Source: an uncultured Methanosarcinaceae archaeon | Lineage (GTDB): Archaea; Halobacteriota; Methanosarcinia; Methanosarcinales; Methanosarcinaceae | Direction of reading: 5' to 3' | DNA: 64,000 nt | NCBI GenBank assembly: GCA_963721455.1 | Contig: CAVRJG010000052.1 | Location: forward strand, 162,421 to 226,420 | Shown: piece after piece, positions 8,271-62,964 of the stretch | How the letters are laid out: each line of letters begins with the position of its first letter | Position numbering within the stretch: the first letter of the stretch is position 1 | Notes under the pieces: model-generated | Told to the model about the DNA's origin: nothing | The model's database searches: none | Seen by the model: the letters and a program-made list of their open reading frames with translations, nothing else | Program-made: the position numbers and the translations under genes

Positions 8271-9168
8271 TCCACTTTCCGCAGGTGCGACAAGAAGCTA
8301 TACTATGAATCGCGCCATTACGCTACCTCTTCCATTTGAGGTAATCCTATTGTGACATGCATAAATGGTAACGTTTGTGTGTGGAGCTTCACATGACAAT
8401 ATCAAGAAATCAAGGAGCCTGACTTTGATAATTGGTTAGGATAAGAATACTATGAAGAACGTAAAGTGAACCATCGTAAGAATCGTGAAGTGGGATAAGC
8501 GCAAAGCAGGTTGATGCGCTTAACCAAAAGGTACAGAATCGGGCTATAATGGGTCTGCGGACATTATGGCAAATGGACAAATGATTCTCGGTTTATAGAT
8601 GGCTTCTAAGGTATTCACATTATTTGTAGTATAGAACTTGGTAAGCCCTAAATGCTCCCATAATGGGTATGACTCCCGCGAGGGATAACGATGGCATTGA
8701 GGGTGAGAGGATTCAGTAAAAAGCGAATGCCAATCTGTAATGGATTGGACAGAGGTTCAAACTTTGCCTCAATCCGAAAGGATGCAGACTTACTGATGGT
8801 GTTTTTTTTTGTGTGAATGGAAACAAACCTACAAATGTAAGATACTCAACGACACCAATAGGTGAGAGGCTTACAGACAATTATGTTAGTGGGCTGTTAT
8901 CCGGAATCACAAAATCAGTTATGCAAATAACTGGTGCCTGATACAGAAAGGGTTTGAAAACACTCGAGCCGTATGAAGGGAAACTTTCAAGTACGGTTCC
9001 TAGGGGAGAAAGGAGGAGTAATCCTCCCTACTTACCCGACATGTACACAAGAATGCCACCGATTTTCCCTATCTGGCAGTCGTTCAAAAATTAACTCCTC
9101 ATTTGATAAGTTATTTTGGACAAGTCGGCAAATTAATTCTACATCTGTGTACATCTGCGGAATGTCGG
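8271..9168. mobile_element. IS1634-derived MITE (142 bp when intron-free) whose left TIR is interrupted by a group II intron
   Basis: Removing 8285-9040 joins TCCACTTTCCGCAG+ATGTACACA, which matches the reverse complement of 9146-9168 (CCGACATTCCGCAGATGTACACA) at 20/23; same core as the IS1634 ends at 11446, 13372 and 62964. Confidence 0.8.
8285..9040 (+). ncRNA. ORF-less group II intron, copy 1 (756 nt)
   Basis: 5' GTGCGAC; domain V GAGCCGTATGAAGGGAAACTTTCAAGTACGGTTC (8966-8999); domain VI hairpin ending CCGAC; EBS1 CTGCGG in a hairpin loop at 8555; EBS2 AAGTGG at 8488. Confidence 0.93.
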
Positions 9169-9295
9169 TTTTACACTGTACTTATCTATTTTCACAAACA
9201 GACTCATCGATTTAATTCCAAAATAATTATATGTTGCCTAGGTTATTTCGTAACCGGTCCTAAGTAAATTGAAATTGCCTCATCATCAAAAATAA

Positions 9296-10075
9296 TTAAT
9301 TTTTCAATTTTACATATACTGAAGTATCTTCGATCTTTGTTTCCAGAATCTCGTTGCATTCATTTTTTATAAGGTTCATCAATTTTTTATGACCATAGGT
9401 GCGGGGATCAAAGGAGGACTTTATTTTCTGAAGGTTCTGGTTTAGTAAGGAAAGGTGAATCCAACTGTCTGCAGTATCTGCCATTTCATAGGCTGTTCTG
9501 ATCAAGGAAAATAGCTCTTCCTTGTCGTTTATTCCCTGTTTTTCAGATGTTTCTATTATCTCATTCTCTTTCTCGTTTTCTGTAGGGTTCATCAGGTTTT
9601 CTACATACACAAAAAGTTCACAAGCATTGCTAAAAGCTTCAGGAGTCTGTTTTTTCCCTATTCCCATGACAAATTTGTTATCTTCCCTGAAACGGGTGGC
9701 AAGCCGGGTATAGTCACTGTCACTTGAGACGATTGCAATACCGTCTATGTTTCCTTTATGGAGAATGTCCATCGCATCTATTATCAGAGAACTGTCCGTT
9801 GAGTTCTTCCCAGTGGTATACGCAAATTGCTGTTGAGGTGTGATCGCCTTCTTGTGCAGGTATTGTTTCCAGGAACTCATTTGTTGGTTTGTCCAGTCTC
9901 CATAAATCCTTTTAACGGTTACGATCCCGTATTTTGAAACTTCTGTTAGAATCGGTTCTAAAGAATCAGGCTGAGCATTGTCTCCATCAATTAGGACGGC
10001 AATTTTCCGTTCAGTTATATGGTAGTAGTTTCCGCGCTCCTCTATCCAGGTTTTAGCACCTACTTCAGAACTCAT
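9296..10075 (-). CDS. NYN-domain (LabA/DUF88) protein with C-terminal OST-HTH/LOTUS domain
   Basis: AVLIDGDNA, RIYGDW, GKNSTDSSLIIDAMD, VSSDSDY and FDPRTYG motifs. Confidence 0.9.
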   Translation of the reverse strand: MSSEVGAKTWIEERGNYYHITERKIAVLIDGDNAQPDSLEPILTEVSKYGIVTVKRIYGDWTNQQMSSWKQYLHKKAITPQQQFAYTTGKNSTDSSLIIDAMDILHKGNIDGIAIVSSDSDYTRLATRFREDNKFVMGIGKKQTPEAFSNACELFVYVENLMNPTENEKENEIIETSEKQGINDKEELFSLIRTAYEMADTADSWIHLSLLNQNLQKIKSSFDPRTYGHKKLMNLIKNECNEILETKIEDTSVYVKLKN

Positions 10076-10197
10076 AAATTAAGTAATATTTCTATCTTTT
10101 ATTTATACCATATAGTTTTAAAGTCAGACTGTTGGCTGGAGGCGGTTTTTGTCGTTTTATTTGTATCCTCTTCAAATTGAGTGGAAAGCTTTCAATT

Positions 10198-11445
10198 TCA
10201 ACTCAATGAGCTTTTTTCTCTAATGAGTTGAGCCAAAGATGGCATCTCAAATGTATTGCTCACTCTATCACATATGTACTGATATGCACTTATACTCAGT
10301 TTCTTTGCAGTCTGAACAATCGTCATAAATGTGTCGTTTGCCTTTGTCCCTTCATCTGTTATGGTTTGAAGGCTCACATCTCTTTTTCTAACCTTTGCTC
10401 TCGCCGCTAGTTCCGCTGCATTGTTATGCAGTGGAACTTCTGGTAAAACCAGTACTTTTAACAGATGTCCCTTGTTCTCTTTCGTCTTACCTATTCTTTC
10501 ATCCAACTGTTCATATCCTGTTATAGTCGAAAACAATTGATCAAACTTAATGGATAATTGCTCCGCTACCTCTGAATCTGGTTTTATTCTAAACTCACAA
10601 AGTTCCCCATAAAAGTCCCAGTACCTGTCCAGAAAAGCTTCCAGCTTTTCTTTAAAATAAGGTACTATTGGCCTCAATTTCTTGTAGTTTCTCCCATCAT
10701 GAATCCAACAAAGAGCATGATGTGATGCAATCTGCTTGAATTGACGTGCATCATCACTCAGAAGTGTGGTAACCACAGGTATGTCTGTACTTTGATGATA
10801 TGCCGCAATTGCACAGGCTTCAAGAACTTTCTTCTTAGTAGTTTTATACCCTTTGAGTGAGAAAACACAATCCAGTTTTCGACGCATTTCTTCATCACTG
10901 AATATTTTGTTTTTAAAAGAAGAGAGCTTTTCCATCCAGATTTGGGAAACATTAAACGTTTCCATCAGATCAAATGCTTCATCATTAAAGCAGTACGTTT
11001 TTTCTTTTCCACATAGAAGTATATCTAAAATGGTTTCCCTATTCTTATTGGGAACTGTAAAATAAGCAGCATAATAAGGATTACAAAGAATTTGAGTATA
11101 GTGATTGACACCATTGACTCTTGCACCTGTATCATCAATCTGCTGATAAGGCGTAGCCTTAAGACCCTCAAGAAAAATCTCAGCTTTTTCCTGATGGAAG
11201 ATATCAGTATCTTTTGTCAAAATTCGAGAAATAGTGGCTCTGGATATATGAACACCAATATTTTCCAGAAATTCATGTATTTTGGGCTCTGAAACATTAG
11301 CAACATGGTTAAGAGTGATTATAAGAGATTTGATTCCAGGGCCAAATTCACCTTTGATACCATGTGGCAATTCTCCTGAATATGTTTTATGCTCAGAAGG
11401 AGAATAAAATATCTCTATCCTGTAGTTGGTGTTCACAGGCTTTAT
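10198..11445 (-). pseudogene. IS66-like transposase, 5'-truncated by the adjacent IS1634
   Basis: QIDDTG, LLSDDA, LCWIH and PLHNNAAELAAR motifs; the frame runs up to the IS1634 TIR at 11446. Confidence 0.8.
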
Positions 11446-13372
11446 CAGACTTTCCGCATATCTCGGATTATTATTCAGACATTTTTATTGGAAAACTGTA
11501 AATAATGTAACTCGCTATTGAATTTTTGAATTTTTATGCACATTACTACTAACGCCCTGGACCATCACGGTATAGTTTGTGGAATTTTCGATGAACTTGA
11601 AATTGGAAGTATTATCGATGAAGTGTTTCCCAAAGTTGGGCAGCATAAGTTAGCTCATTCAATAGTGATAAAGGCAATGATTCTTAATTGCCTTGGATTC
11701 ACTGACAGTCGACTTTACCTGTACTCTCAATATTTCGAAAACCTTCCAGTTGAAAGGTTACTTGGTCCTGGAGTTAGTGCATCAGATCTTAATGACGATG
11801 TTTTAGGGCGAACTCTTGATAAGATATACGAAGTAGATCCTACTCAACTGTTCATGAAACTTTCCATGAGAATGATGGAAATTGTGAACCTTAAGGTTAT
11901 ACAACTTCATTGTGATGATACCAATTTCAGCGTTCATGGAGACTATGAACCTGAAGACGGTAGTTCTGCCATAGAACTCACTTATGGTCACGCGAAAGAT
12001 AAGAGATATGATTTGAAGCGTTTTTCAATGGGGATGATTGTAAACCAGTATGGTATGCCATTATTTACACAGGCTTATTCTGGAAATTCATCCGACAAAG
12101 AAACCATAGTAGAAGCCATGAAAAGACTTAAAGAAAACATAGAGTTCCCTGATGATGTTTATTTCATAGCTGATAGCTCTCTGTATTCTGAAGATAATAT
12201 CAAAGCATTAAAAGACATGAAATGGATCACTCGCGTTCCCTCAACTCTGAATCTTTGTAAAGAGCTACTGACTTCTGATCTTGAGTTTAAACAGGGAGAA
12301 GACCCACGCTACTCATTTTATGAAACGATGGTTGAATATGGTGGCATAAAACAAAAATGGATAGTTGTTCACTCTGCCGAGATGCATAAAAGAAAGGAAA
12401 TTACGTTTGAAAAGAAAATAAAAAAGATAGTCAAGGAAGCTCAGAAAGAGCTTAAAGAGCTGAAAAAAATAGAGTTTGCATGTGAAGAGGACGCAAGAAC
12501 AGCCCTGGAAAGATGGAAAAAGGAAAACCCTTACTGTTTGCTGGAAACGGTGGAGACCTCCACAATCTCAAAAAGAGAAAACGGTAAGAAGGGAAGGCCA
12601 AAAAAGGGTGAAAAGCTTGTCATTCATTATGTTGTAGATGCAAAGGCTATCAGAAATGAAGAAATCGTACAGCATGAAAATGAGTATCATGGTAGATTTA
12701 TAATCGGCAGCAGTGACCCCAATCTTGATGCTGACGATATGCTGGAAAAATACAAAAACCAGAGTAAAGTGGAAAAAGGATTCAGGTTCATAAAGGACAA
12801 AAGTTTCAGGGTTTCTGAGGTTTATCTTAAGAAACCCGAAAGAATTGAAGCGTTATCAATGATCATGGTTTTAACTCTGATGGTTTACTCGGTAGCAGAA
12901 TGGAAGCTGAGAGAAAAACTAAAAGAAACAGGGGAATCAATACCGAACCAAGTTAAGAAACAAACTCAAAAGCCGACATTGAAATGGGTTTTCATGCTGA
13001 TGAGGGGGATTACGGAAGTGGAAGTAAAAACGAAATCAAAAACTAAAATTCAAATTACCAACTTGGATGAAATTAAAGAGAAGTTAATAAGGTTGATGGG
13101 AAAGAGTTGTGAAAAATACTATTTTTGAGATGAGGGTATAAGCTCTTTAAATAAAATATTTCAAGGGTTTCAGATAGCACAAGTAGCGGATGCTGTTATA
13201 TAATTCAGGAAATACCAGTTATACAATTATGAAAAATATGGGCATAGTGACAAATTCAGTTTGTGCTGTGTTTAAGAATCAACTAACTTGCCATAACAAA
13301 GGTCAATTATTATTGAACAGTAAAATATGTAATAAAATAATTTTATTTTTGTGGACATTTGCGGAATGTCGG
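11446..13372 (+). mobile_element. IS1634-family insertion sequence
   Basis: Left TIR CAGACTTTCCGCATATCTC; right TIR GACATTTGCGGAATGTCGG; no matching TSD seen. Confidence 0.8.
11536..13128 (+). CDS. IS1634-family transposase (apparently intact, 530 aa)
   Basis: LDHHGIV, LNDDVLGRTLD, YGHAKD.R.DL, IADSSLY, VEKGFRFIK and KPTLKWVF motifs. Confidence 0.92.
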   Translation: MHITTNALDHHGIVCGIFDELEIGSIIDEVFPKVGQHKLAHSIVIKAMILNCLGFTDSRLYLYSQYFENLPVERLLGPGVSASDLNDDVLGRTLDKIYEVDPTQLFMKLSMRMMEIVNLKVIQLHCDDTNFSVHGDYEPEDGSSAIELTYGHAKDKRYDLKRFSMGMIVNQYGMPLFTQAYSGNSSDKETIVEAMKRLKENIEFPDDVYFIADSSLYSEDNIKALKDMKWITRVPSTLNLCKELLTSDLEFKQGEDPRYSFYETMVEYGGIKQKWIVVHSAEMHKRKEITFEKKIKKIVKEAQKELKELKKIEFACEEDARTALERWKKENPYCLLETVETSTISKRENGKKGRPKKGEKLVIHYVVDAKAIRNEEIVQHENEYHGRFIIGSSDPNLDADDMLEKYKNQSKVEKGFRFIKDKSFRVSEVYLKKPERIEALSMIMVLTLMVYSVAEWKLREKLKETGESIPNQVKKQTQKPTLKWVFMLMRGITEVEVKTKSKTKIQITNLDEIKEKLIRLMGKSCEKYYF

Positions 13373-13898
13373 TGATATACACAGGTTCAGGAAAAATTCT
13401 GCGAAATATCGCAGGAACAAGGATCTTCTGTACCTGGAAATGAATAGAACACTTATGAATCCGATTATGTAAATTTTTATTTCTATTATGGGAATTACAT
13501 CTCAATTATAAATAGTCTGCTATTATTATGTAACAGATTTTTAACTGTGTATATTCCTGCACAAATTGTTGTTATTCTTCAAAAATTTCCTTCCTATTCC
13601 TGTCTTTGAATTGCTCTGTTTTTAACTGTTCTGTTATATCCTGATTATTTATTTTTTCTTTTGAGCTGCAGATCAAATTCGGAAAGTCTTGATTTTTCAA
13701 CAGTAGAGGAAAGAATTTAAATCTTTGAGGAAATGTTTTATTGGGGAGAGAAATAAGTCAGTTTTCGTTTTGAATGAATATTGGCTATACGTTACTCATA
13801 TCGCCGTTGTCCGAATTTTTCTTGAATTATTCATTACAGTTTTATTTAAGGATTCATTTAATCTACAGGCGAATTCATCTATAGGTTCATTGAACCTG

Positions 13899-14052
13899 GA
13901 CTTAATTACCATTTAATGTAGACTTAATCACATTTAATGTAGACTTAATTACATTTAATGTAGACTTAATCACATTTAATGTAGACTTAATTACCATTTA
14001 ACTTAGATTTAATCACATTTAATGTAGACTTAATTATCATTCAAGCTGGACT
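13899..14052. repeat. About 7 tandem copies of a 21-22 bp unit GACTTAATYACATTTAATGTA upstream of htpX2
   Basis: Units start at 13899, 13921, 13942, 13963, 13984, 14006 and 14027. Confidence 0.9.
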
Positions 14053-14092
14053 AAACTATAGTTTTATCTATCAAGTGTAGGCGGAATAACAT

Positions 14093-14977
14093 ATGAAAAG
14101 AAAGTGGGATCGGGACTTAGGACTTCAGGGACGGATGCTTCTCACAATGTTTCTTCTGGCAGTAGTTTACATTTCATTCCTGGTATTTCTTTCGTACTAT
14201 GGAACGCCTCCGGTCTTCATGATTTTATTTATTAGTCTTTTCATGGGTATTCAATACTTTTATTCGGACAAGTTGGTTCTCTGGACAATGGGGGCACATG
14301 TAGTCTCAGAAAGTGAAGAACCACAGTTGCATGGGATGATCACCAGGCTCTGCGCAATAGCAGATCTTCCGAAACCGCAGGTGGCAATTGTCAGGACTCA
14401 GGTCCCAAACGCCTTTGCGACAGGCAGGAGCCCGAATAAAGCTGTTGTTGCAGTTACGACAGGGATTATGGATAAACTCTCTCCAGCCGAGCTTGAGGCA
14501 GTGCTTGCCCACGAGCTAAGCCATGTCAAGAACAGGGATATGGCTGTCATGACAATTGCCAGTTTCATCTCAACACTTGCTTTCTACTTTGTCCGTTACA
14601 GCCTTTACTTCGGAAACATGGGAGGAGACAGAAAGAGAGAAGGCGGAGGCATTATGCTTGTCTGGTTGGTTTCAATTGCAGTCTGGGTTGTCAGTTTCCT
14701 GCTGATCCGTGCCCTTTCCCGCTATAGAGAATATTCTGCAGATAGGGGTGCGGCCATCATCACCGGGCAGCCGTCTGATCTTGCGTCTGCTCTTATGAAA
14801 ATAAGCGGGGTTATGGCCAGGGTCCCGAGTGAAGACCTCAGGAAAGTAGAGGGAATGAATGCTTTTTTCATCATTCCTGCAATCTCAGGTTCTTCTATAA
14901 TGGACATCTTTTCCACTCACCCATCTGTGGAAAAAAGAATAGCCAGGCTTGAAAAGATGCAACAGGATATGAGTTAA
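14093..14977 (+). CDS. htpX: Zinc metalloprotease HtpX paralog
   Basis: PNAFATG, AHELSH, SRYREYSAD and STHP motifs. Confidence 0.93.
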   Translation: MKRKWDRDLGLQGRMLLTMFLLAVVYISFLVFLSYYGTPPVFMILFISLFMGIQYFYSDKLVLWTMGAHVVSESEEPQLHGMITRLCAIADLPKPQVAIVRTQVPNAFATGRSPNKAVVAVTTGIMDKLSPAELEAVLAHELSHVKNRDMAVMTIASFISTLAFYFVRYSLYFGNMGGDRKREGGGIMLVWLVSIAVWVVSFLLIRALSRYREYSADRGAAIITGQPSDLASALMKISGVMARVPSEDLRKVEGMNAFFIIPAISGSSIMDIFSTHPSVEKRIARLEKMQQDMS

Positions 14978-15025
14978 AGAATGAAATTAGTTAAAAAAAT
15001 GAAATAAATTAAGGGGATAAGTTAA

Positions 15026-15643
15026 ATGGGTTTCCGGAATTTTATGGATGCGGTCCTCGGGAGGAGCAGCCTTCCGAAAGCAAAAAGCGACAAGCTCTTT
15101 GCAATTTCTACTGCCAGCATTACTCTGGAAAGCAATCTCGGCCTAAAACCATCAGGATCGGCAGGGGTCTGCTTTAAGCCAATAGGGGCTTCAGCCTATG
15201 AATCCGCACGAAAGGAGATTCAGGAGCTTCTGGAGTACAGTTCAAAGGAAACGGAAACCGAATTCAGGCTGGAAAAAGACGAGTTCAACTTCCTGTGGGC
15301 TATTTTTAAAGACCCGGACTTCGAAGACCTTGTTGCAAACATTCACCTGGTAAGCGAAACCCTTGAAGGATATGGTTTTGGCGAGCAGATCCTCTGTGCC
15401 ATTTACAGGTTTGACAGCGAACCCGAAGCCGGAACAACCGGGCGTGAAGGAAAAACCGGCGGCAGAAAAGCAGTTTACTGGATTTATAATTTTAAACAGG
15501 GGACCTATTACCCCTTTATTCCGCTTTCTGGCAAGCAGAGGGACAGCCCCTTCGAATTCAGGCTCAGGGCAGAAATGGAGAGGGAAATGCCTGTAGAAAA
15601 AAATGTGGAAAAATGGTATCCTCTCTGGGGAATTCCGTTCTAA
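15026..15643 (+). CDS. PspA-associated protein PspAB-like
   Basis: LFAISTA, WIYNFKQGTYYPF and EKWYPLWGIPF; typical position directly after htpX. Confidence 0.7.
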   Translation: MGFRNFMDAVLGRSSLPKAKSDKLFAISTASITLESNLGLKPSGSAGVCFKPIGASAYESARKEIQELLEYSSKETETEFRLEKDEFNFLWAIFKDPDFEDLVANIHLVSETLEGYGFGEQILCAIYRFDSEPEAGTTGREGKTGGRKAVYWIYNFKQGTYYPFIPLSGKQRDSPFEFRLRAEMEREMPVEKNVEKWYPLWGIPF

Positions 15644-15731
15644 AAAACTGCCATGCCAGTAAATTAAATTCTTTCAATTCTTAATTGAGTTCATTTTGAT
15701 TGAGTTAAAGTCTAAACCCTCAGCTTTTAAT

Positions 15732-16998
15732 GGCAGTGTACCGAAAGTTCTGTAAAATATGATTGACTCTGTATCCTTTTCTTTTCACCACAAAAAAACA
15801 GGATGCAGAGTCAATGGTTAATTTATTCTCACTTATAAAAGATTATCTTGTCGATCAGGAAGATGGAATTCGCCAGCTAATTACCTGGTTTTTAAACCTT
15901 ATAATGGAGGAGGAAGCCCTCCTCCAAGCTGGCGCACAACGTTATGAGCGGATTGATTCACGTAAAGCCAGTAGAAATGGCTACAAACCCCGAACTCTTC
16001 TGACCAAGCATGGAAAACTTGAATTGTCAAAGCCTCAATTCCGTGAGTTTCCCTTTGAAACCCAGGTTTTTGAGAAATATTCGAGAGTTGAAAAGGCCAT
16101 CTTAACCGCTATAGCGGAATCTTACCTTCAGGGTGTTTCCACCCGAAGGGTGGAAAAGATCATGATCGCTTTAGGAGTAGGTGAAATCTCAGCCTCTTCT
16201 GTTTCCAGGATTACTAAAGAACTGGATGAAAAGGTTGAAGAATTCCTCTCAAAACGAATAGAACATGAAATTCCTTACTTGTTATTGATGCGACTTATTT
16301 CAAGGTAAGAGATGGGCTTCATTATGAAAACAAAGCTCTCTTCGTAGTTGCTGGAATCAGGGATGACGGTTACCGAGAGATACTTGGAACAAGATTGGCA
16401 GACAGTGAAGCTTCTATGTTCTGGGAAGATCTATTCGAGGATCTGAAAGAAAGAGGGTTAAGAGGTGTCAAGTTAATCGTTTCTGATGGTCATAAAGGAA
16501 TACAGAAAGCAGTCAGAGAATCCTTTATTGGATCAAGTTGGCAGATGTGTCATGTACATCTGACAAGACAAGTTCTCAAGAAGGTGCCAAAAAAGAAGCA
16601 GAAAGAAGTGGCTGAGAAGATAAAAGAAGCATTAGTCGACCGTCAGAACTTGAATCACCTGATTAGGGAACTGGACAGTATGGGGTATAAAAGCGCAGCT
16701 GATACCCTTGAAAGTTTTCAATATGATGTAATGAACTATATGCAGTTTCCAGAAAAACACTGGAAAAAAATAAGGACAACAAATATGATGGAAAGGACTA
16801 ACAAGGAACTCAAAAGAAGAAGCAAGGTAGTTGGAGCATTTCCTAACCAGGACTCAGTATTGAGACTTGTAGTCTCAATACTAATTGATATAAATGAAGA
16901 CTGGATCACAGGAAACAAGTATATAGTAATGGAACAGTAATCAAAAAAGAAGACGAAGGGGTAGAGAGTAGATTTTACAGAAAATTAGGCACACTGCC
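15732..16998 (+). mobile_element. IS256-family IS, transposase split by a frameshift near 16280
   Basis: TIRs GGCAGTGTACCGAAAGTTCTGTAAAAT / ATTTTACAGAAAATTAGGCACACTGCC; RNGY, YLQGVSTR, VSDGHKG, WQMCHVH and TTNMMER motifs across two ORFs. Confidence 0.88.
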
Positions 16999-17244
16999 TA
17001 AAATGGTGACTATATATTCCACATTATAACATATACAAATAATTAAATATCCAACGCTCTTAAAACACTTCATAGAAAAAGAGTAATTAAAAAGAGGTGA
17101 AAATTGATATGATGCTTTTTTTCGATTTTAGTCAACTTTTTGCATTTATGATCGAGTATTTTCCATTCGTACTGCAATAACTCAGCTATATCATATCAGG
17201 AACGTGTATTTCACATTTCCTGATACTAATTTTTAAGAGAAATT

Positions 17245-17322
17245 CAGGTTCAAACGTTGATTAATCAGAAGGCAATTGAGGCACCTGGAGAAAAGAAAAA
17301 GCCTTTCTGGAAATTTTGGTAA
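17245..17322 (+). pseudogene. Gene-tail remnant 1 (QVQTLINQKAIEAPGEKKKPFWKFW*)
   Basis: 61 bp identical to 19858-19918; no start codon or upstream frame. Confidence 0.7.
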
Positions 17323-17395
17323 CTTCATTTATCCAGATTTATCCTAAAATAAAAAGTTAAGGAAAAGGTTTTTTCCCAACTTTCAACTTCTGAAA

Positions 17396-19613
17396 TCATT
17401 TTTCCTTATGAATAATTATAGAGCCACCATTAATGGCAGTTGATGGTTCTGAGTCTTCTTCTGTTCCAATCTCATTGTCGTAAATAATATTCTCACTTTC
17501 TTTATCCCATATTTTTATTCTGAACTTATCAACTGCACCATCAACGGCACTCAACATGAATGCGTAGTTTCCTTCGCCATTGATAGTTCCAGTGCCTTTG
17601 TACTTAGCCTGTGATCCAGCAACGACAAGCCAATCATAGCTCTCTGAGTGGAAGTTCAGGTCTGCAACTTTGAACTGGAATTCTGTCTTTCCAGTTGGTA
17701 CTGTAGCACCTTTCTCATACTTAGAAACGAATCCAAATGTTGCTTTGCCTGCCAAGGTATTATCTGGAACATATGCTCCTGCTGGTGAGTTGATCCAGCC
17801 ACCGCCTGTTACAAATCCTCCTTGAGGATCATACACGACAACATAGTCGAGTGCTTTTTTTGTCTCAGATCTGCCTTCAGCATCTGTTATTGTGAAGGTA
17901 ACAGTATAGATCCCTGGTGAATTATACACATGAGACGTTTCAAAATTGGATAAAATTTGAGATTTAGATGTACTTCCATCTCCCCAATTCCATTCAGCAG
18001 TCAATGTGTCCAGATTTCCTAGATATGCAACATCCGCGCTGGTTGTAATAGAGGTGCTTACTGGTATTGGGGCAAGAGGAACTATAATAGAGTTGATAGT
18101 AGGAGCAGGGACTAAAACATTGATTGTAACATCTTTTGAAGCCGCGCTGTATTTTGTAGTATCTGAGGGTACAAAATCAACATGTAGTGTTTGCCCCATA
18201 CCTGCACTCAAGACATTTCCTGCTGCTGGATTGTAAGTAAATGTTCCGGCTACTGGAACTCCACTTACTGGATCAGTTGCAGCTGCATTCAACTGAGTAT
18301 CCCACAATGCTGTTCCAATGGTTATGTCAGCTGGGTTATTCCAGGTAATTGTAGGAGTTTTAAGAGGTTCTGGCAAGACATTTATTTGAACATCCGCTGA
18401 TGATATGTTATAGTTTGCAGTATCTATGGGTGTAAAATCTACATGCAAGATCTGTGTACCTATATCTAGTAAAGTTCCTGAAGGTGGAGTATAGACAAAG
18501 GTACCAGGTACTGAAGCTTCTGCATTAAATTGAGTATTGCTCAGTGCTGTACCATAAATTATGTCAGCAGGTTTACTCCAGATAATTGTAGGAACGATTT
18601 TTTTCTTTAGAAAATTTCTGAATGCGATGATTGCCACAATCAGCAACATATACATTGCCCGACGAATCAACAACAATATCCCTTGGACTATGAAATTGTC
18701 CTTCGCCGTTACCATAAGAACCCCATTTAGTAATAAATGCACCACTACTGTCAAACTTCTGAATGCGATTATTTCCCGTATCGGTCACATAAACATTGCC
18801 AGATGAATCGACAGCAACACCATATGGATAATAAAATTGTCCGTCGCCAATATCATGAGAACCCCATTTGGTAATAAATGCACCATTACTGTCAAACTTT
18901 TGAACGCGATGATAGCCAGTATCAATAACATATACATTGCCAGATGAATCGACAGCAACACCGGATGGCCCAGAAAATTGTCCATCACCACTGCCCTGAG
19001 AACCCCATTTGGTAATAAACATACCACGACTGTTAAACTTCTGAATACGATAATTGGATGTATCGGTCACATAAACATTGCCAGATGAATCGACAGCAAC
19101 ATCATATGGATTAGCAAGTTGTCCGTCGCCACTACCGTAAGAACCCCATTTAGTAATAAACATACCACTACTGTCAAACTTTTGAACGCGACTATTTGGC
19201 CAATCGACAACATATACATTGCCTGGTGAATCGACAGCAATACCATATGGATTAGCAAGTTGTCCGTCGCCGCTACCGAAAGAACCCCATTTGGTAATAA
19301 ACATACCACTATTGTCAAACTTCTGAATACGATGATTGGATGTATCGGTCACATAAACATTGCCAGATGAATCGACAGCAACATCATATGGATTATAAAA
19401 TTGTCCATCACCACTGCCCTGAGAACCCCACTTTGTAACAAAAGTATAATTTTCAGCATGCGTAACAGAAGCGCTCATCAATCCAAGGAAAAATAAAATC
19501 AAAAAAAACAGTATTTTCTTAGAAACATTAACCTGTTGATAATTCGTTTTCAAATCCTCCTTATAGGTTATGATATATTCACTTTTCATCACGTTTCGTT
19601 TCTTCCGTTTCAA
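17396..19613 (-). pseudogene. Secreted NHL-repeat beta-propeller + Ig-like/PKD surface protein, frameshifted at an A7 run (18598-18604)
   Basis: Six NHL repeats (P..VAVDSSGNVYV.D..N.RIQKF); downstream frame has PTITW.NPADI repeats and a PKD motif (WNWGDG); removing one A joins KFSKEK-IVPTIIW. Confidence 0.85.
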
Positions 19614-19794
19614 ACCTCAGTAAATTAATTTTGAATTTAGAATGAAACATAGTTAATAAGTAAAACAGATAATATTTTTCTCTATAAAGAAAATGATTTG
19701 AATAAAAAAGAGCGTTTTTCGAATTATCAACAGAATTTATATTAATTTTAGTTCTTTCAATGATACAGAGCTCTTCAAACTTATCAAACTTGTA

Positions 19795-26533: not shown

Positions 26534-26542
26534 CTTTTTCCT

Positions 26543-51844: not shown

Positions 51845-52139
51845 TCACAATTCGCCTATCCTCGCCTATATGTATTCTTTTGTTATCTTTTTCTTCCTTA
51901 TTTTATATCCAGTTTCAAATGAATTCTTAGTATAGAAGTATGTGTGATTTGTTTCAATTTGTACAGCGCCGTGTCTCTCATGCGCAGGATACTTATTTTT
52001 AAACCTATAGGACAAAAAATTTGAATGAAAAAATCACTCTGGCCTGAAAAAAATTTCTGCTTTCAGGCATTAAAAGAAAGCTGAATTTGAGATTCAGTTT
52101 TAGAATGGGATTGGTCTGATAAGGTTCAAAAGGTAATTT

Positions 52140-54818: not shown

Positions 54819-54989
54819 CCAGTTTTCTTCGGTTTCTCCATCTATGCTGTCATTCCGGTTTATGCCAGAGCCACCTGTCCATGATTTTCTCTACTCTTTT
54901 TAGTAATTATTTCTCAATATTTTGGATTATTTATTCCAGGATTCAAATTCTTAAGCCTATTTCTAAGCATTATTTTGTGGTCATCTATA

Positions 54990-55060
54990 AAATACTTATA
55001 ACATATTAAATCTGTAAATACTTATAACATATTAAATCTGTAAATACTTATAACATATTA
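54990..55060. repeat. 26-bp tandem repeat AAATACTTATAACATATTAAATCTGT, about 2.7 copies
   Basis: Copies at 54990, 55016 and 55042, in the divergent promoter region. Confidence 0.85.
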
Positions 55061-55313
55061 ATATTCGGATAATTCACTCAAATAAATAATATAAGTCCTT
55101 CGATAAAAGTCCGGTTGAATTCAGACAATTAACCATGAGTATTTATAAAAAACCTGGCATTTATGAATCCGTAGGTACCGGCAAAGCCTGCAGCAATTCC
55201 TGGAAAAACGCCTGGATTCCGGAAAAATGCCCGGATAAAAATGCTCGGATAATGTAAAGGCTAATATCTGAAATTCAAAAATTAAACTCGATTTTTGTAA
55301 AAAAGGTGATATT

Positions 55314-55502
55314 GTGGAGGATTTTAACCAGCTCAAAAGAAAACTTGATGATATGAACGCTTCGGAACTTTTCGGGTATGTAAGGGAGAACTATCCTGAA
55401 AACGAGGATCTTGGGATCGGGTCCAAAAAAATAGTCATCAGGAAAATCCTTAACTTTGAAAGAAACAGGATGAATGAGCAGGAAGGTTTAAAGGAAGGTT
55501 GA
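55314..55502 (+). CDS. Small hypothetical protein
   Basis: AAGGTGA SD + GTG, 62 aa; followed by GAGCAGGAAGGT repeats. Confidence 0.65.
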   Translation: MEDFNQLKRKLDDMNASELFGYVRENYPENEDLGIGSKKIVIRKILNFERNRMNEQEGLKEG

Positions 55503-56148
55503 GCAGGAAGGTGAGCAGGAAGGTGAGCAGGAAGATTTCTTTTTCGCCAGCCGAGTTGCGTTTCGGCAGCCCGCTGTCCGTTTCACTCGCTTCGCTCGCT
55601 CAAGCGGACTAATTTATAAATTACAAATTTACATTTTTTTCTATTTTCTTCCGTGCCGTGGCAGTTATAGAGGTTGAGTGAATTAAAAACCACTGAAAGC
55701 ACGGAATAAAGGAAACAAGGGCACAGAGTTTCCGTTTTTTCGGTGGTTTATCTTATTTAAGATTTGTAAAATATCTTTGATGCTTAACTATTCTCTATCA
55801 GGGCCAGAAGCGCTCTAAAATACATTTCTTACTTTTTTATCCAAATAAGAACCTGCTTTTTTGAAGGTTTAAGGTCATACTTTTTTAAACCTTTCCTTGG
55901 GAGCTCCGCACCTGGGGCACGTCCAGGATTTTGGGAGATTTTCAAAAGGCGTATTCGGAGCTATGGATTGTGAGGAATCCCCATGGTCAGGGTTATAAAG
56001 GTATCCGCAGTTATCGCATCTGTACATTCGAATCACCCCGGTTTCTATATTATAAAGAAAAAACCTCAGTTAATTTTAAAATTTTATGCCTGGTACCTGT
56101 TATATTAAAAATTAACTTTTTTCTTTGTTCAGGTCTTTTTCCCTGCTT

Positions 56149-57399
56149 TCATATCCAGCCCCGAAGCTGCATGGCTTCAACCACTCTGCCGACAGCAAGG
56201 GTATATGCAGCCTGCCGCATGTAGACATTGTTTTTTGCCGCGAACGCGTACACCGAATGATATGCTTCTTTCATCTTTCTCTCCAGCCGGTCCTGAATCT
56301 CGTCTTCTTCCCATTGTGTGTTTGACTGGTTCTGCACCATCTCGAAGTACGAAACAATAACTCCGCCTCCATTGCAGAGGATATCGGGGATGAGATGGAC
56401 CCCATTTGAATTGAGGATTTCTTCTGCTTCCGTTGTGGTCGGCCCGTTAGCCATCTCGGCAAGAATCCTGGCTTTAACCCTTTCCGCGTTTTCTTCGGTT
56501 ATCACATTCTCAAGAGCAGCCGGGATCAGGATCTCCACATCCAGTTCCAGCAACTCTTCGTTAGTGATATTTTCTGCTCCGGGATAGCCCAGCACCGAAC
56601 CTGTTGAGTGCTTGTATCCGGAAACGTCTTCAGGGTCAAGCCCTTCAGGTGAGTTGATAGCGCCTTTGCTGTCGCCTACAGCCACAACTTTGCAGCCGAA
56701 TAGCTTTTTTGCCAGATACGCAGCATGATATCCCACGTTTCCGAAACCCTGTACTGCAACCCTTGAGTCTTTCAGGCTAATTCCAAGCTTTTCTGCAGCT
56801 TCCCTTATGGTATATAAGCCGCCCCTTGCCGTGGCATCAAACCTGCCTGCAGAGCCTCCAAGGCTTGTGGGCTTGCCTGTAATGGAACCAAATACATTTT
56901 TGCCTGCCATTTTTGAGTACTCGTCCATCATCCAGGCCATGACCTGCGGATTTGTATAGACATCAGGAGCAGGAATATCCCTGTCCGGGCCTATCATCTG
57001 GTAAATCCCACGGATGTATGCCCTGCTAAGGCGCTCGATTTCCCTGTGGGAGAGTTCTTTCGGGTTGCACACAACCCCACCTTTTGCCCCTCCGAGAGGC
57101 AGCCTGTGAAGGGCACATTTCCAGGTCATCAGGGCCGCAAGGGCTCTTATCGTTTCCATTGTCTCTTCAGGATGGAAACGAATGCCTCCTTTGGTAGGGC
57201 CCAGAGCTTCGTTGTACTGGACCCGGAAGCCTTTAAAAACCTTTATGGAACCGTCATCCATATGGACAGGCAGGGAAACGTAGAGTTCTCTCATAGGCAT
57301 TTCCAGGAACGCTTCCATATCAGGAGTGAGCTTAAGGCCTGCAGAGCAGGTACACAGATGCCGTTTAACGTCTTCCAGGAGCTTGGAATCGGAACTCAT
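56149..57399 (-). CDS. gdhA: Glutamate dehydrogenase
   Basis: GPTKGGIRFHP, GGAKGG, DIPAPDVYT, QGFGNVG, EMANGP and GGVIVSYFE motifs. Confidence 0.95.
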   Translation of the reverse strand: MSSDSKLLEDVKRHLCTCSAGLKLTPDMEAFLEMPMRELYVSLPVHMDDGSIKVFKGFRVQYNEALGPTKGGIRFHPEETMETIRALAALMTWKCALHRLPLGGAKGGVVCNPKELSHREIERLSRAYIRGIYQMIGPDRDIPAPDVYTNPQVMAWMMDEYSKMAGKNVFGSITGKPTSLGGSAGRFDATARGGLYTIREAAEKLGISLKDSRVAVQGFGNVGYHAAYLAKKLFGCKVVAVGDSKGAINSPEGLDPEDVSGYKHSTGSVLGYPGAENITNEELLELDVEILIPAALENVITEENAERVKARILAEMANGPTTTEAEEILNSNGVHLIPDILCNGGGVIVSYFEMVQNQSNTQWEEDEIQDRLERKMKEAYHSVYAFAAKNNVYMRQAAYTLAVGRVVEAMQLRGWI

Positions 57400-57477
57400 G
57401 GTTACCCCCTCTAAATAATGGGCTTCTGAACATTAAATAACTGCTGGAAACCCGATTCTCCTGCACATACCGGGCCT

Positions 57478-57911
57478 TTAAAAGGCAGCAGGTACCTCAA
57501 ATTCCCTTTTATCCTTTTCATCTGAAATTGGTAGTCCATTTTTATTCAGTTGAATAATCGAAGAAGAAAGCTCATAATCAAGACTGGCGTAGAACAACAC
57601 AGCCACAAAACTCAAAAAACAAGGCAAAAAGACTAACAAATTAACAAAATACACAACAAACCTAGCATAAAACCTAGCACCATAAGCCCTAACAAGACTA
57701 TACATCAATAAACCCGTATTTAATATCGAATAATATACCATAATTGTAAACAAGAACAGTAAGAAAAAAGCCATTGCATTACGTTGAAGCAAAGGAACTT
57801 GGTCATAGGATAACACAAACCAAATAAAACAATATACGTTTGAACTAACCTCTCACGCTTATCAGCTTCCTTATCATCAAACACAACGATACCCTTTTCA
57901 TATCCAGACAT
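57478..57911 (-). pseudogene. Frameshifted membrane-protein gene of atypical composition
   Basis: Two overlapping hydrophobic ORFs (57720-57917, 57478-57816) that would join by a shift near 57795; strongly T-ending codons. Confidence 0.45.
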
Positions 57912-58104
57912 TATCAAAAAAAGAGTTGCATTTCTTATTCAATCAGATGGTAAGTCAGATAGCTTTCTCTGAAATAAGTCCTGAGTCTATGAGTATTTTT
58001 AGACATTCCATATATCGTAATCAAGTAAATTATCTATGATACGTATGTTTGTTTCTGTTTCTTTTTATCTATGCTTATTTATATTTTGAAATCTTTTTTC
58101 TATT

Positions 58105-58236
58105 GAGCTTGTTTCAAAACGAACTCCAATTCCTCTGAACAAATATTTCGGAGGAGCTAAATCAAGATCAATAGAGATAAATGGAATATCTGCTTTTGGT
58201 CAAAAACATAAATAGCCGGAATCTTGAAACCAGCTC
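58105..58236. mobile_element. 132-bp MITE (IS5-like ends, related to 6343)
   Basis: TIR GAGCTTGTTTCAAAA vs reverse complement GAGCTGGTTTCAAGA (13/15); ATT on both flanks. Confidence 0.7.
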
Positions 58237-58409
58237 ATTAAATAATCATTGATTTATAAATTCGTAGAAATTTATCTAATTGCGTGGACAAGGACAAAAA
58301 TCGGGGTTAGTCGTATTATTTTCTGGGTGTAGGAAACATATCCATAAAACAGAATTCGGTATCAAGCTCAATAAGTATAATATAAAGAAAAAAGACTGGA
58401 AGGAGAAAT

Positions 58410-58643
58410 ATGGTCTGTCCTGTGTGTGTAGTTGGAGGAGTTGGGTTTATTCTCAGTAGGATTTTTGGGTTCCCTGATGTTGTTGTGGCTTTTGTTATTG
58501 GGATGATGGCAACTTCGATGGCATACTGGGTAAATCATATCATGGCGAAAAAATGGAAAAAAAGAAAAGGTCAGCTTGTAGCAATCAATATCCTGTCAGG
58601 GATTATTTTTTTATATTCTCTCAAATTGATTGGGCTGTGGTAA
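58410..58643 (+). CDS. Small membrane protein with N-terminal CPVC
   Basis: AAGGAG SD; MVCPVC followed by 2-3 hydrophobic helices. Confidence 0.7.
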   Translation: MVCPVCVVGGVGFILSRIFGFPDVVVAFVIGMMATSMAYWVNHIMAKKWKKRKGQLVAINILSGIIFLYSLKLIGLW

Positions 58644-58803
58644 CAGAATATGAAAATTCATCGAGTAACAGGCACAAAGAAATGAAAGTACCTCCAAGCT
58701 GGCAGTACTTTCATGCTAAGGACCCACCGCGAAATAACATAGGCAGTTTTTAAGAATGTATTAAATAACTTTCACGAGCAAGGTAGATGATTTAACTTTA
58801 ACT

Positions 58804-60248
58804 CATGCGTCATCGGTTAAGCATTAGATAATCACTTCTACATGCGTTTTTATAATAATAATTTAAATATTAGTGTATATATGTCTCCTCATCCCCCACC
58901 TACTCTTGAAGACTCTCTTCGGGAAATGTTTCCCGAAGAGTGGTTAAGGCAAACTGCCAAAGAAACTGGTCTCATAGTACGTGAGCGTAAAATTGACCCT
59001 GTCATCATCTTTTGGGTTTTAACTCTCAGTTTTGGTGTACGCTTGCAGCGTACACTTGCCAGTTTGAAAAGAGAATATGAAAAAGAATCAAATAAGACCC
59101 TAAGCGACAGCAGCTGGTACTATAGATTCACTCCAGAACTTGTGGAGTTTCTTCATCAGTGTGTTATTCATGGCATAGAAGAACTTGCAAAAGAACCCGG
59201 TAGAAAACTTAGTAAAAAACTCGAAAACTTCCAGGATGTTCTCATTCAGGACAGCACAATTGTTCGTCTTCACTCCTCTTTATCAGACAAGTTTCCGGCA
59301 GCAAGAGCAAGAACAGTAGCTGCTGGAGTAAAAGTGGGAGTTATGGTAAGTGCAGTTGCTAATGGACCTAAAACAGTTGCTCTGTACTCTGAAAAAACAG
59401 CTGAAATGAAAACATTGAAAATAGGGCCCTGGATCAAAGACCGTATTCTTCTTGTTGATCTTGGTTTTTACAAAAGCCAAATGTTTGCAAGAGTTGAGGA
59501 AAATGGAGGATATTTTGTCTCAAGAATTAGGAAGAATATGGATCCTATTCTTGTTTCTGTTGAAGAGGGACTTTCTAAGACAAAAAGCAAAGAGTTCACT
59601 GGAAAACCTGTTAGTGAGTGTATTAAGCAACTTTCAGGAAAAGATCTTGATGCTGTTGTGAAAATAAAGTTTAAAAGAAGAGCATACAAAGGCAAGCAAA
59701 AACAGGATGAGATGTGTGTACGTCTTGTTGCGGTATATAATGATGAAGATGAAAAGCACCACATATACATTACAAATATTCAGAAAGATGTTTTGAGTGC
59801 AAAAGACATTGCAAAATTATATGGAGCAAGATGGGACATAGAGCTGCTTTTCAAGGAGTTAAAAAGCAAATACGCGCTTGACGTTCTGGATACAAAGAAT
59901 GTGCAGGTAATTGAGGCTCTAATATGGACAGCAATGTTGACATTAATCGTTAGCAGAAGAATTTATTCTCTTGTAAAGAACAATGCGGCTCATCCTGAAA
60001 AAATGGTTCGATATACTCAAGAGAGATGGAGCATAATATTTGCTGAAAATGCATCAGATTTATTGACAGTGATTCTGCATAGATGTGGAATTGAAAGAAC
60101 TTTTGAAACAGTGATGAGTGTGTACGAAAGTCAAGCATTGGATCCACATGTAAACAGAGAAAGGTTCAGAGAAGAATGGTTAGAATGAAAAGATGAACTG
60201 AAAAACACTATTGGTAGATTGAAGTAAGTTCTTAACCGATGACCAATG
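58804..60248 (+). mobile_element. IS4-family (ISH8-like) IS, intact, 10-bp TSD
   Basis: TIRs CATGCGTCATCGGTTAAG / CTTAACCGATGACCAATG; TSD AACTTTAACT at 58794 and 60249. Confidence 0.93.
58881..60188 (+). CDS. IS4-family transposase
   Basis: IQDST, VDLGF and YGARWDIELLFKELK (YREK) motifs. Confidence 0.92.
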   Translation: MSPHPPPTLEDSLREMFPEEWLRQTAKETGLIVRERKIDPVIIFWVLTLSFGVRLQRTLASLKREYEKESNKTLSDSSWYYRFTPELVEFLHQCVIHGIEELAKEPGRKLSKKLENFQDVLIQDSTIVRLHSSLSDKFPAARARTVAAGVKVGVMVSAVANGPKTVALYSEKTAEMKTLKIGPWIKDRILLVDLGFYKSQMFARVEENGGYFVSRIRKNMDPILVSVEEGLSKTKSKEFTGKPVSECIKQLSGKDLDAVVKIKFKRRAYKGKQKQDEMCVRLVAVYNDEDEKHHIYITNIQKDVLSAKDIAKLYGARWDIELLFKELKSKYALDVLDTKNVQVIEALIWTAMLTLIVSRRIYSLVKNNAAHPEKMVRYTQERWSIIFAENASDLLTVILHRCGIERTFETVMSVYESQALDPHVNRERFREEWLE

Positions 60249-60509
60249 AACTTTAACTAAATTATCTATTGCCTAAGTTATTTCGTTACAAATCCTAAGG
60301 GCTCGTCACAAAATAATTTAATTAATACCCGAATTTGACAGAAACATACATTTTATAATGTGTAAATGGGCTTCGTGCGTCTGTTTTCTTAATATAATTC
60401 AAATTTATTTCTTGTGTTTTTTGATTTTTGACGTTTTTCATTTTTCCAAAAGGTACTGTGTCGATGCAACACTTTTTTTGTAAGAAAAAACTGTATTAAT
60501 TAGTAGAAT

Positions 60510-62964
60510 CCCACTTTCCGCAGGTGCGACAAGAAGCTATACTATGAATTGCACCATTCGCTACCTCTTCCATTTGAGGTAATCCTACTGTGACATGCAT
60601 AAATGGTAACATTTGTGTGTGAAGCTCACAGGACACTATCGAGAAATCAAGGAACCTGACTTTGGTAATCGGTTAGGATACGAATACTATGAAGAACATA
60701 AAGTGAACCATCGTAAGAATCGTGAAGTGGAATAAGCGAAAGCAGGCTGATACGCTTAACCAAAAGGTACAGAATCAGGCTGTAATGGGTCTGCGGACAT
60801 TATGGCAAATGGACAAATGATTCTCGGTTTATAGATGGCTTCTAAGGTATTCACATTATTCGTAGTATGGAACTTGGTAAGCCCTAAATGCTCCCATTAT
60901 GGGTAGGACTCCCGCGAGGGATAACGATGGCATTGAGGGTAGAGGATTCAGTAAAAAGCGAATGCCAATCTGTAATGGATTGGATAGAGGTTCAAACTTT
61001 GCCTCAATCCGAAAGGATGCAGACTTACTGATGGTGTTTTCTTGTGTGAATGGAAACAAACCTACAAATGTAAGATACTCAACGACACCAATAGGTGAGA
61101 GGCTTACAGACAATTATGTTAGTGGGCTGTTATCCGGAACACAAAATCAGTTATGCAAATAACTGGTGCCTGATACAGAAAGGGTTTGAAAACACTCGAG
61201 CCGTATGAAGGGAAACTTTCAAGTACGGTTCCTAGGGGAGAAAGGAGGAGTAATCCTCCCTACTTACCCGACATCTCCCCTTAAAAATAGTATTTTTCAC
61301 AATTTTTCCCCATCAACCTTATTATCTTTTCCTTAGTTTCATTTAAGTTTGCAACTTGAGTTACCACTTTTGAGTCAACATCCATTTTTACTTCTGTAAT
61401 TTCTCTCATCAGGATGAAAACCCATTTTAATGTTGGTTTTTGAGTTTGTTTTTTAATCTGGTTTGGTATTGTTTCCCCTGTTTCTCTTAACCTTTCTCTT
61501 AATTTCCATTCTGCCACAGAATAGACCATCAGAGTTAATACCATTACCATTGACAGTGCTTCAATTCGCTGAGGTTTTTTTACATACACCTCAGAGACCC
61601 TGAAACTTTTGTCCTTTATGAATCTGAACCCTTTTTCCACTTTACTCTGGTTTTTGTAGTGTTCCAGCATCTTTTCAGCATCAAGATTGAGGTCATTGCT
61701 TGCGATTATAAACCTCCCCTGATACTCTTTTTCATTCAGTGTAATTTCTTCATTCCTGACTGCTTTTGCATTTATAACATAGTGAACGATAAGCTTTTCA
61801 TCCTTCTTTGGCCGTCCTTTCTTCCCGTTTTCTCTTTTTGAGATCGTGGAAATCTCTGCTGTTTCCAGCAAACAGTACGGATTCTCATTCTTCCATCTTT
61901 CCAGAGCAGCTCTGGCATCCTCTTCACAGGCAAACTTTATCATCTTTAACTCTTTGAGATCTTTCTGAGATTCCGTAACCTTCCTCTGGATTTTCCTTTC
62001 AAAAGTAATATCCTTTCTTTTCTGCATCTCAGAAGAGTGAACAACTACCCATTTTTGTTCGATACCTCCATATTCAACAATAGTTTCGTAAAATGAATAA
62101 CGTGGATCCTCTCCTTTTTTGAACTCAAGATCAGATGCCAACAAATCTTTTGAAAGATTTAAGGTTGAAGGAACACGAGTGATCCATTTCATGCCTATTC
62201 CCATTGATTCTGATATTTCCGTCAGAGTATAGAGCACTATCAGCTATGTAGTAAACATCATCAGGGAACGTTATGTTTTCCTGAAGTTTTTTCATTGCCT
62301 CAATTATGGTTTCTTTGTCTGATGAATTACCAGAGTAAGCCTTTGCAAATAACGGGATTCCATACTGATTTGTTATTGTTCCAAGTCCAAAACGCTGCAG
62401 GTCGTCTCTACCGTCTTTTGCATGACCATATGTAATTTCAATGGCAGAACTACCATCGATATGTTTGTAGTCACCATAAACGCTAAAATTGGTAGTGTCA
62501 CAATGGAGGAGTTGAGTCCTGATGTTCACGATTTCCATCATTTTCAAGGCAAGTTTCATGAAAAGTTGAGTCGGATCTGCTCCATGGATCTCGTCAAGAG
62601 TCCTTCCTAAAACATCGTCATTAAGATCAGATGCACTGACTCCAGGACCAAGTAGTCTTTCAACTGGAAGAGTTTCAAAGTACTGAGAATACATGTAAAG
62701 GCGAATGTCAGTGAAACCAAGACAATTGAGAAGCATTGCTTTTACTACTATAGAATGAGCTAACTTGTGCTGCCCAAGTTTGGGCAGCACTTCGTCAATC
62801 ACTTTTCCAATTTCAAGTTCATCATAAATGCCAGAAACGATTCCGTGATGATCAAGAGAACGTGTTGTAACAAGCATAATAAAATCTAAATCAAGATTCG
62901 ATATTTTAGATATTTATACATTAATAAAAAAGGAAAAATTTGTCAGACATCTGCGGAAGGTCAG
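60510..62964 (-). mobile_element. IS1634-family IS with frameshifted transposase (62877-61281) and a group II intron in its downstream TIR
   Basis: End at 62964 reads CTGACCTTCCGCAGATGTC on the - strand; the other end rejoins as CCCACTTTCCGCAG+ATCTC after removing the intron; transposase paralogous to 11536 and split near 62210. Confidence 0.88.
60524..61272 (+). ncRNA. ORF-less group II intron, copy 2 (749 nt)
   Basis: Near-identical to 8285-9040; GTGCGAC start, domain V at 61198-61231, ends CCGAC; EBS2 at 60725, EBS1 at 60791. Confidence 0.93.

Follow-up and report, generated by a model that had tools for sequence, protein, structure and literature searches.

The window, a 64,000-nucleotide stretch of the genome of an uncultured Methanosarcinaceae archaeon (contig C52, positions 162421-226420), contains two group II introns without an open reading frame (ORF), each of which sits in the extreme end of a transposable element of the IS1634 type. 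Table 1 lists the introns, their guide loops and the host elements. The first intron lies in a miniature inverted-repeat transposable element (MITE), whose right terminal inverted repeat (TIR) matches the left one over ~22 nt, and the second in an insertion sequence (IS) with a transposase gene. Both occupied ends are ..CCACTTTCCGCAG ends directly followed by GTGCG. Four other ends, namely the opposite end of each of these elements and both ends of an IS1634 with an intact transposase, are intron-free; no further IS1634-type ends were found in the window, where the remaining TTCCGCA matches have no end context. All six end sequences are as the original prediction, made from the DNA letters alone, had stated them. 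The MITE, which it had taken for an IS1634, is not a full IS but a derivative with IS1634-type TIRs; related copies are located on contigs C15, C16 and C59.

Table 1. Introns, guide loops and host elements in the window (EBS, exon-binding site; IBS, intron-binding site)
Feature	Position	Strand	Basis and remarks
Outermost 14 nt of the left TIR of the ~141-bp IS1634-type MITE, TCCACTTTCCGCAG	8271..8284	+	sequence; 5' exon (IBS2+IBS1) of intron 1
ORF-less group II intron 1, 756 nt, 5' GTGCG, 3' ..CCCGAC	8285..9040	+	Rfam, sequence, alignment
Guide loops of intron 1	EBS2 AAGTGG 8488-8493 (plus G at 8494); EBS1 CTGCGGA 8555-8561	+	alignment
Remainder of the MITE	9041..9168	.	intron-free right end 9155-9168, read inward CCGACATTCCGCAG
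IS1634-family element, intact 530-aa transposase (11536-13128), intron-free	11446..13372	+	sequence, NCBIfam, relatives
Outermost 14 nt of the transposase-distal end of the second IS1634, CCCACTTTCCGCAG	60510..60523	+	sequence; 5' exon of intron 2
ORF-less group II intron 2, 749 nt, antisense to the transposase	60524..61272	+	Rfam, sequence, alignment
Guide loops of intron 2	EBS2 AAGTGG 60725-60730; EBS1 CTGCGGA 60791-60797	+	alignment
Body of the second IS1634	61273..62964	-	transposase in two frames (61281-62237, 62131-62877); sequence, NCBIfam

Both introns score 63.5 bits with the Rfam model RF00029 (gathering score 40) and 63.5 and 63.1 bits with RF02012 (gathering score 34), so that both domain V/VI and the core of domains I-IV are recognised by covariance models, and they satisfy the boundary rule of group II introns (5' GUGYG, 3' AY) with GTGCG...CCCGAC. 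They are 95.9% identical to each other, and neither contains an ORF for a reverse transcriptase (RT)/maturase.

When 16 intron copies of this genome are aligned, two loops change jointly with the 5' exon. EBS2, 5'-AAGUGG in the window introns, pairs with IBS2 at positions -13..-8, and EBS1, 5'-CUGCGGA, with IBS1 at positions -7..-1. The sets of loops and exons found are AAGTGG/CTGCGGA with CCCACTT|TCCGCAG, AAGCAG/CTGCCGA with CCTGCTT|TCGGCAG, and AATTTG/TACAGAA with TCAAAAG|TTCTGTA. Over 34 distinct intron/exon combinations from this genome and its relatives, the loops form 5.09 of 6 and 6.38 of 7 pairs, compared with 3.46 and 4.23 pairs for shuffled exons; the observed values were reached by 0/5000 shuffles, a figure that is not a probability, since the 34 sequences are kin. 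Folding of domain I by minimum free energy did not reproduce the canonical EBS loops, and for this reason the EBS assignment is built on covariation and alignment.

The intron-free ends of the window pair incompletely with these loops. The ends at 9168 and 62964 (the latter reading CTGACCTTCCGCAG inward over 62951-62964) form 4/6 pairs with EBS2 and 7/7 with EBS1, and those at 11446 and 13372 form 4/6 and 6/7. The original prediction had called their IBS2 broken; mismatched it is, yet the term is too strong, as the genome has an occupied end at another place that mismatches at these same two positions. It was right that the IS1634 with the intact ORF has lost the terminal G of IBS1 at both ends, as position 14 (IBS1 -1) is not G in either CAGACTTTCCGCAT (11446-11459) or CCGACATTCCGCAA (13359-13372). 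For the window alone, the contrast between pairing ends (2/2 occupied) and the others (0/4) is weak (Fisher p=0.067).

The introns are inserted precisely between TIR nucleotides 14 and 15 and are always directed into the element. The intron is the sole difference between homologous ends with and without it: contig C71 reads CCGACCTTCCGCAG-intron-ATGTCTCAAG, and the empty MITE ends read CCGACCTTCCGCAG ATGTCYTCAAG. The 14-mer is the true terminus of the element, because 6-bp target site duplications (TSDs) flank it immediately on the outside, at MITEs (AAACAT, TTAGAA, ATGAAA, CTCGCT, TAATAT), at C54b (TTTAAT) and at IS copies of relatives, among them those in G009. In the window, 60510 is the exact point at which the flank changes in environmental contigs.

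The match between 14-mer and guide loops could in principle be a consequence of insertion, if the 14-mer travelled with the intron as a co-mobilised 5' exon or were converted by it, but we give this explanation hardly any credence. AAT precedes CCCACT at three occupied sites, and the local end of the second IS differs from that of relatives by the single base that creates the match, both of which would fit such an origin. At C54b, however, the TSD TTTAAT lies directly outside CCCACT, so that the AAT there is flanking DNA. Further, the occupied 14-mers vary (CCCACTT, TCCACTT, CCTACTT, CCCGCTT, CCGACCT), empty CCCACTTTCCGCAG ends are common in relatives, and lariat retrohoming, by its established mechanism, carries no 5' exon (PMC5894124). 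A compensatory change of IBS2 after insertion was also considered and rejected.

We extended the comparison to the whole genome, a draft assembly of 3.94 Mb in 73 contigs, some of them redundant. An automatic definition of IS ends by clustering of the downstream sequence was swamped by paralogues and duplicated contigs. The 37 ends evaluated were curated by hand: C44/C71 were merged into one event, as were two rows on C59; repeats with a constant upstream flank, such as caaaaaTAATATTTCCGCAG, were omitted; and the doubtful ends C50:31298 and C39:244394 were retained. The ORF-less intron follows a ..TCCGCAG end in 11 rows, which represent nine independent events. Eight of the fully pairing ends (7/7 and 6/6, G-U allowed) are occupied and three are empty, whereas among imperfect ends one is occupied and 25 are empty (Fisher p=3.5e-5; this value, like that for the window, overstates independence, because the ends are related by descent as MITE copies or on duplicated contigs). 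If G-U pairs are counted, 86 sites can pair; occupied rows make up 9/12 of those with at most one G-U and 0/74 of those with two or more. The targeting rule of the original prediction is thus borne out in a genome-wide table, with EBS assignments validated by covariation.

The same intron, 100% identical over 750 nt, occurs at seven places in elements of differing type and with differing flanks, including the position of intron 2, which provides indirect evidence of recent intron mobility. These copies also bear on a second alternative, by which occupancy would reflect history and not pairing: the occupied ends would be older or inherited in the occupied state, and the GAC-type MITEs and the active IS would be young. 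It is true that the occupied elements are decayed or solo ends, that the empty copies of MITE-236 retain their TSDs and are 93.6-98.4% mutually identical, and that C44 and C71 represent one insertion by descent (99.0%, 6542 nt). But the seven identical intron copies are younger than these elements, so the intron burst met both kinds of end, and the occupied sites lie in at least six element contexts with different flanks. Nor can age alone explain a reciprocal pattern in two related genomes, G001 and G010, where the CCCACTT ends are empty among the matches listed (see below), and the RT-encoding intron lineage of this genome is equally selective. We therefore regard a purely historical explanation as improbable.

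Some features of the assembly touch on these loci. The likeness of C44 and C71, as well as that of C12 and C25 (98.7% over 7674 nt), may be due either to strain heterogeneity or to segmental duplication; at the locus shared by C44 and C71, the introns diverge more (about 97% identity) than their flanks. The last ~3.4 kb of C44 (154500-157964) have 60-72% G+C, compared with ~42% for the genome, begin within the right TIR of the intron-bearing MITE, and look like a chimeric join or contaminant DNA. The full intron at C59:1454-2600 is preceded by two tandem copies of a unit made up of flank, 14-nt end and ~167 nt from the intron start, which is either a local duplication or an artefact in the assembly of this 6.3-kb contig. 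A MITE family of ~250 bp with ends CCTACTTTCGGCAG / GTCGAC.. is highly amplified (e.g. C16:7103-9832, C38:101256-101506); 35 ends carry the exact CCTACTTTCGGCAG 14-mer, and on C16 several of the copies are arranged head to tail.

Three introns of the genome contain an ORF (two on C15, one on C19). Their intron-encoded proteins (IEPs) are intact, 492 aa long and 99.8-100% identical, and carry RVT_N, RVT_1 and GIIM domains, plus a weak match to RdRP_1, at E<=0.01; the domain search gave no match to an endonuclease domain at this threshold. The guide loops of this lineage, EBS2 AAGCAG and EBS1 CUGCCGA, differ from those of the window introns, and its members occur exclusively in ends that match these loops and belong to another IS1634 subfamily (about 45% aa identity). 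They occupy 3/15 CCTGCTTTCGGCAG ends, 0/35 CCTACTT ends and 0/16 CCTACAT ends. Aligned with the ORF-containing intron, the ORF-less one matches at nt 1-594 and 646-739.

Two more lineages were seen. A third intron (C25:9190-9940 and C12:48373-49124), which starts with ATTCG where GTGCG is expected, sits in CCTGCATTCGGCAG, beside a fragment of an IS1634-like transposase; its EBS2, AAGTAG, would pair perfectly with the 35 CCTACTTTCGGCAG MITE ends, of which 0/35 are occupied. A further ORF-less lineage, about 80% identical, is represented by C49:3888-4646 and the relatives L087-L090, with a markedly different conserved site, ..AAAGTTCTGTA, and a matching EBS1 (TACAGAA/TTACAGA).

The intron family is matched in 46 of 59 genomes of the genus. 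We counted ends in these relatives by eye in the 150 of 389 matches that were listed, with a search pattern that excludes one base at the last position. Introns with EBS2 AAGUCA, AAGUCG or AAGUC- lie in CTGAC(T/-)T ends in G003, G001, G010 and G029, an intron with EBS2 AAGUCU lies in a CTGATTT end in G045, and one with EBS1 GUGAGGA lies in a ..CAC end (L069). Among the matches listed for G001, 1/3 CTGACTT ends are occupied and 11/11 CCCACTTTCCGCAG ends are empty; the corresponding figures for G010 are 1/2 and 0/3 occupied. AAGUCR introns in CTGACTT ends, with the CCCACTT ends left empty, are a reciprocal control for the pattern of this genome. A lineage with co-varying EBS2, which the original prediction had proposed to look for, is thereby found, although the pair is not the ATGTCG in CGACAT ends that it gave as an example. 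Eight more occupied ends in relatives were read for EBS2, seven of which are 5' fragments or cut by contig ends or Ns, so that L123 is the informative one. At G041:C47, an intron in a CCGACAT end is located at the edge of its contig.

These relatives are also the ground on which to judge an arms race between introns and transposons. By this explanation, an intron that splits the TIR kills the IS, IS elements respond by varying IBS2 at -12/-9 and IBS1 at -1, and introns re-tune their EBS; the four empty ends of the window would be escape variants, and the change from G to T at position 14 of the intact IS a live example. Matched pairs do vary by species (AAGUGG/CCCAC, AAGUCR/CTGAC, and EBS1 GUGAGGA/..CAC at L069), and compensating changes in the guide loops were thus found, with L065, L016/L017 and L080 as exceptions. 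The intact IS copies examined are intron-free and, in this genome, mismatched at -1 at both ends. The elements that carry introns show decay, as seen in the frameshifted transposase of the second IS1634 and in the decayed partner TIRs at C54b and C59, and the most abundant MITE families mismatch the resident introns. There is also a bacterial precedent, RmInt1, for an intron that blocks the spread of an IS (PMC5894124).

The polarity of the changes speaks against an arms race. With the exception of one left end, the resistant TIR states are not derived ones. The right end of the intact IS type is ..CAA in 5/5 copies of G009, and also in G012 and G028, and a search of G009 with the intron gave only weak, fragmentary matches (best E 2.5e-10). 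The left end is ..CAG in G009, G012 and G014 and ..CAT in G028 and this genome. Throughout the genus, the same IS types commonly have GAC-type termini, and a widespread MITE family natively ends in CCCACTT, empty in G001 among the matches listed; both variants are therefore old polymorphisms. The second IS type has CCGACTT, CTGACTT, CTGACCT or CTGCCTT in relatives, all empty, where this genome has the occupied CCCACTT, and the local change from CCGACTT to CCCACTT moves towards susceptibility. Judging by these comparisons, the mismatched termini are old and common, and only the change from G to T at the left end, common to G028 and this genome, is derived. The escape from the intron suggested by the original prediction thus fails for three of the four ends (GAC-type, or ..CAA, in other species) and could apply to this left end. 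On balance, we consider an arms race unlikely, though less so than either of the alternatives discussed above. Such a genus-wide race, if real, would be one of the few instances in which two mobile elements coevolve at the level of sequence, testable by a few base swaps, and insertion between TIR nucleotides 14 and 15 would amount to a natural disarming of transposons.

The explanation that we favour, and hold to be probable, is that EBS/IBS pairing guides group II introns into the ends of IS1634 elements and MITEs, with their ORF deleted and their mobility supplied in trans. They would be nested parasites, settled in the extreme ends of IS1634 elements and their MITE derivatives: the guide loops would pair with the outermost 14 nt of the TIR and the intron would enter between nucleotides 14 and 15, in a process that would be ordinary EBS/IBS-guided retrohoming of an ORF-deleted intron, presumably by reverse splicing into DNA. 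What was observed is that loops and exons are complementary and covary, that insertion is precise, that intron copies are near-identical and that the IEP genes are intact. The ORF-less copies are probably internal-deletion derivatives, for which related ORF-containing introns of this genome (the three intact copies without an endonuclease domain) would have to provide RT/maturase in trans for splicing and mobilisation. The transposon terminus would offer a harmless, multicopy site. For the host element, insertion probably abolishes transposition, a loss that we infer because the intron separates TIR nucleotide 14 from nucleotide 15.

Beside the kinship of the ends, several findings weigh against homing of this kind. 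The end list is hand-curated, which is a weakness. The original prediction had named many empty perfect ends, or mismatched ends occupied with no compensating EBS change, as evidence to the contrary, and both exist to a degree. Three fully pairing ends are empty in this genome (C8:84737, C51:3540, C67:11635); among the matches listed, 21/22 CCCACTTTCCGCAG ends are empty in G005, where an AAGUGG intron resides in a CCCACTT end, and together with the counts for G001 this means that perfect ends are mostly empty outside this genome. The mismatched end is, in this genome, a single one, CCGACCTTCCGCAG at C44/C71, occupied with 4/6 IBS2 pairs and an unchanged EBS2; five more ends bearing this 14-mer are empty, and the CTGACCT end of the window pairs equally well (4/6). 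In relatives, AAGUCG introns occur in CCCACTT ends (L065, L016/L017) and an AAGUCA intron in a CTCACTT end (L080). The nearest IEP-bearing intron, whose IEP may mobilise the ORF-less one in trans, is only ~83% identical to it in RNA sequence, and 71% in the 3' part. Finally, in the sequencing runs only the intron part is represented (word shares 0.22-0.59). Among their contigs, those of metatranscriptome libraries extend over the intron, and none shows an exon-exon junction across it; as contigs cannot show transcription or splicing, we draw no inference from them.

Because perfect ends are often empty and a few mismatched ends are occupied, pairing appears close to necessary for homing into these termini, but far from sufficient. 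The four intron-free ends of the window would accordingly be empty mainly because they do not pair, and partly because homing is not saturating.

Other features of the window concern the host elements and their surroundings. The 530-aa product of the intact element is an IS1634-family transposase (NF033559, 404.4 bits, cut-off 100; Pfam DUF4277 and DDE_Tnp_1), and the two frames of the second IS1634 score 183.5 and 199.6 bits with NF033559, with a stop codon 8 nt from the intron. The flanks of the intact element show no matching target duplication (CTTTAT and TGATAT). A copy on C53 (18071-21522), 99.7% identical, has the target duplication ATATAA and is interrupted by ~1.5 kb between the end of the transposase gene and the right TIR. 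The left end of the intact element adjoins a remnant of an IS66-family transposase (10198-11445; 412 aa, under the NCBIfam cut-off). A co-directional ORF lies upstream of each intron, for a CN-hydrolase (7258-8073) and for a DDE_Tnp_1 transposase (58842-60188), an arrangement that would allow read-through transcription into the introns. At position 60597, contigs of two RNA-library runs switch to the start of another group II intron (GTGCGACGAG..), which is a nested intron insertion in environmental relatives.

Here at least, the "exons" of Methanosarcina introns, which do not code for protein, prove to be ends of IS1634 elements and of their MITEs, so that one selfish element lives on, and probably disables, another. 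With one 14-nt site present in dozens of variants per genome, these termini form a natural data set for the target rules of archaeal group II introns, for which two resident intron lineages and several sister species offer reciprocal controls.

IS1634-derived MITEs of Methanosarcina, related to ISMba11 and ISMac10 and ~247-249 bp long, agree in size, length of the inverted repeats and 6-bp duplication with those seen here; in the available part of that account, group II introns are mentioned only as false positives of the repeat search and not as occupants of MITE ends (PMC3852290). Our literature search, which did not extend to Dai & Zimmerly 2003 and Simon et al. 2008, yielded no account of group II introns homing into IS1634 ends. 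According to Dai & Zimmerly 2003, ORF-less and RT-encoding introns of Methanosarcina reportedly home into the ORFs of related introns. Introns described from this genus resemble ours in the same mixture of ORF-less and RT-encoding forms, in nested insertions and in non-coding flanking exons (PMC4424553), and the nested junction in environmental contigs is a further likeness. The difference is that the pattern described there is homing into other introns, with no mention of an IS1634 TIR site in the part of the work available to us (PMC4424553).

In Thermosynechococcus elongatus (Mohr, Ghanem & Lambowitz 2010), as far as described in the part available, introns likewise became ORF-less by one internal deletion in domain IV and are mobilised in trans, ORF-less copies outnumber their ORF-containing relatives, and families have diverged in EBS and target (PMC2882425). 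There, however, the targets are diverse genomic sites, and mobility was established experimentally (PMC2882425), whereas here we deduce it from sequence.

The homing habit itself is best compared with RmInt1 in ISRm2011-2 and RmInt2 in ISRm17 of Sinorhizobium meliloti. In the portions of these accounts at hand, the natural homing site lies inside a multicopy IS, its recognition depends chiefly on EBS/IBS pairing, the IEP lacks an endonuclease domain, and related introns use different IS targets (PMC5894124, PMC4615759). Our likening concerns this habit and not the IEP class, archaeal introns being reported as mostly CL1A (PMC8919778). In contrast to RmInt1, the host here is an archaeon, the target belongs to IS1634 instead of IS630, and most copies are ORF-less. 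The site, moreover, is the outermost 14 nt of the TIR, with no part of the target in the transposase gene, and for this reason MITEs can serve as hosts as well. The introns of the window thus follow, in an archaeon, a habit already known from bacteria, and do not constitute a novel type of system; their closest precedent is RmInt1 in ISRm2011-2.

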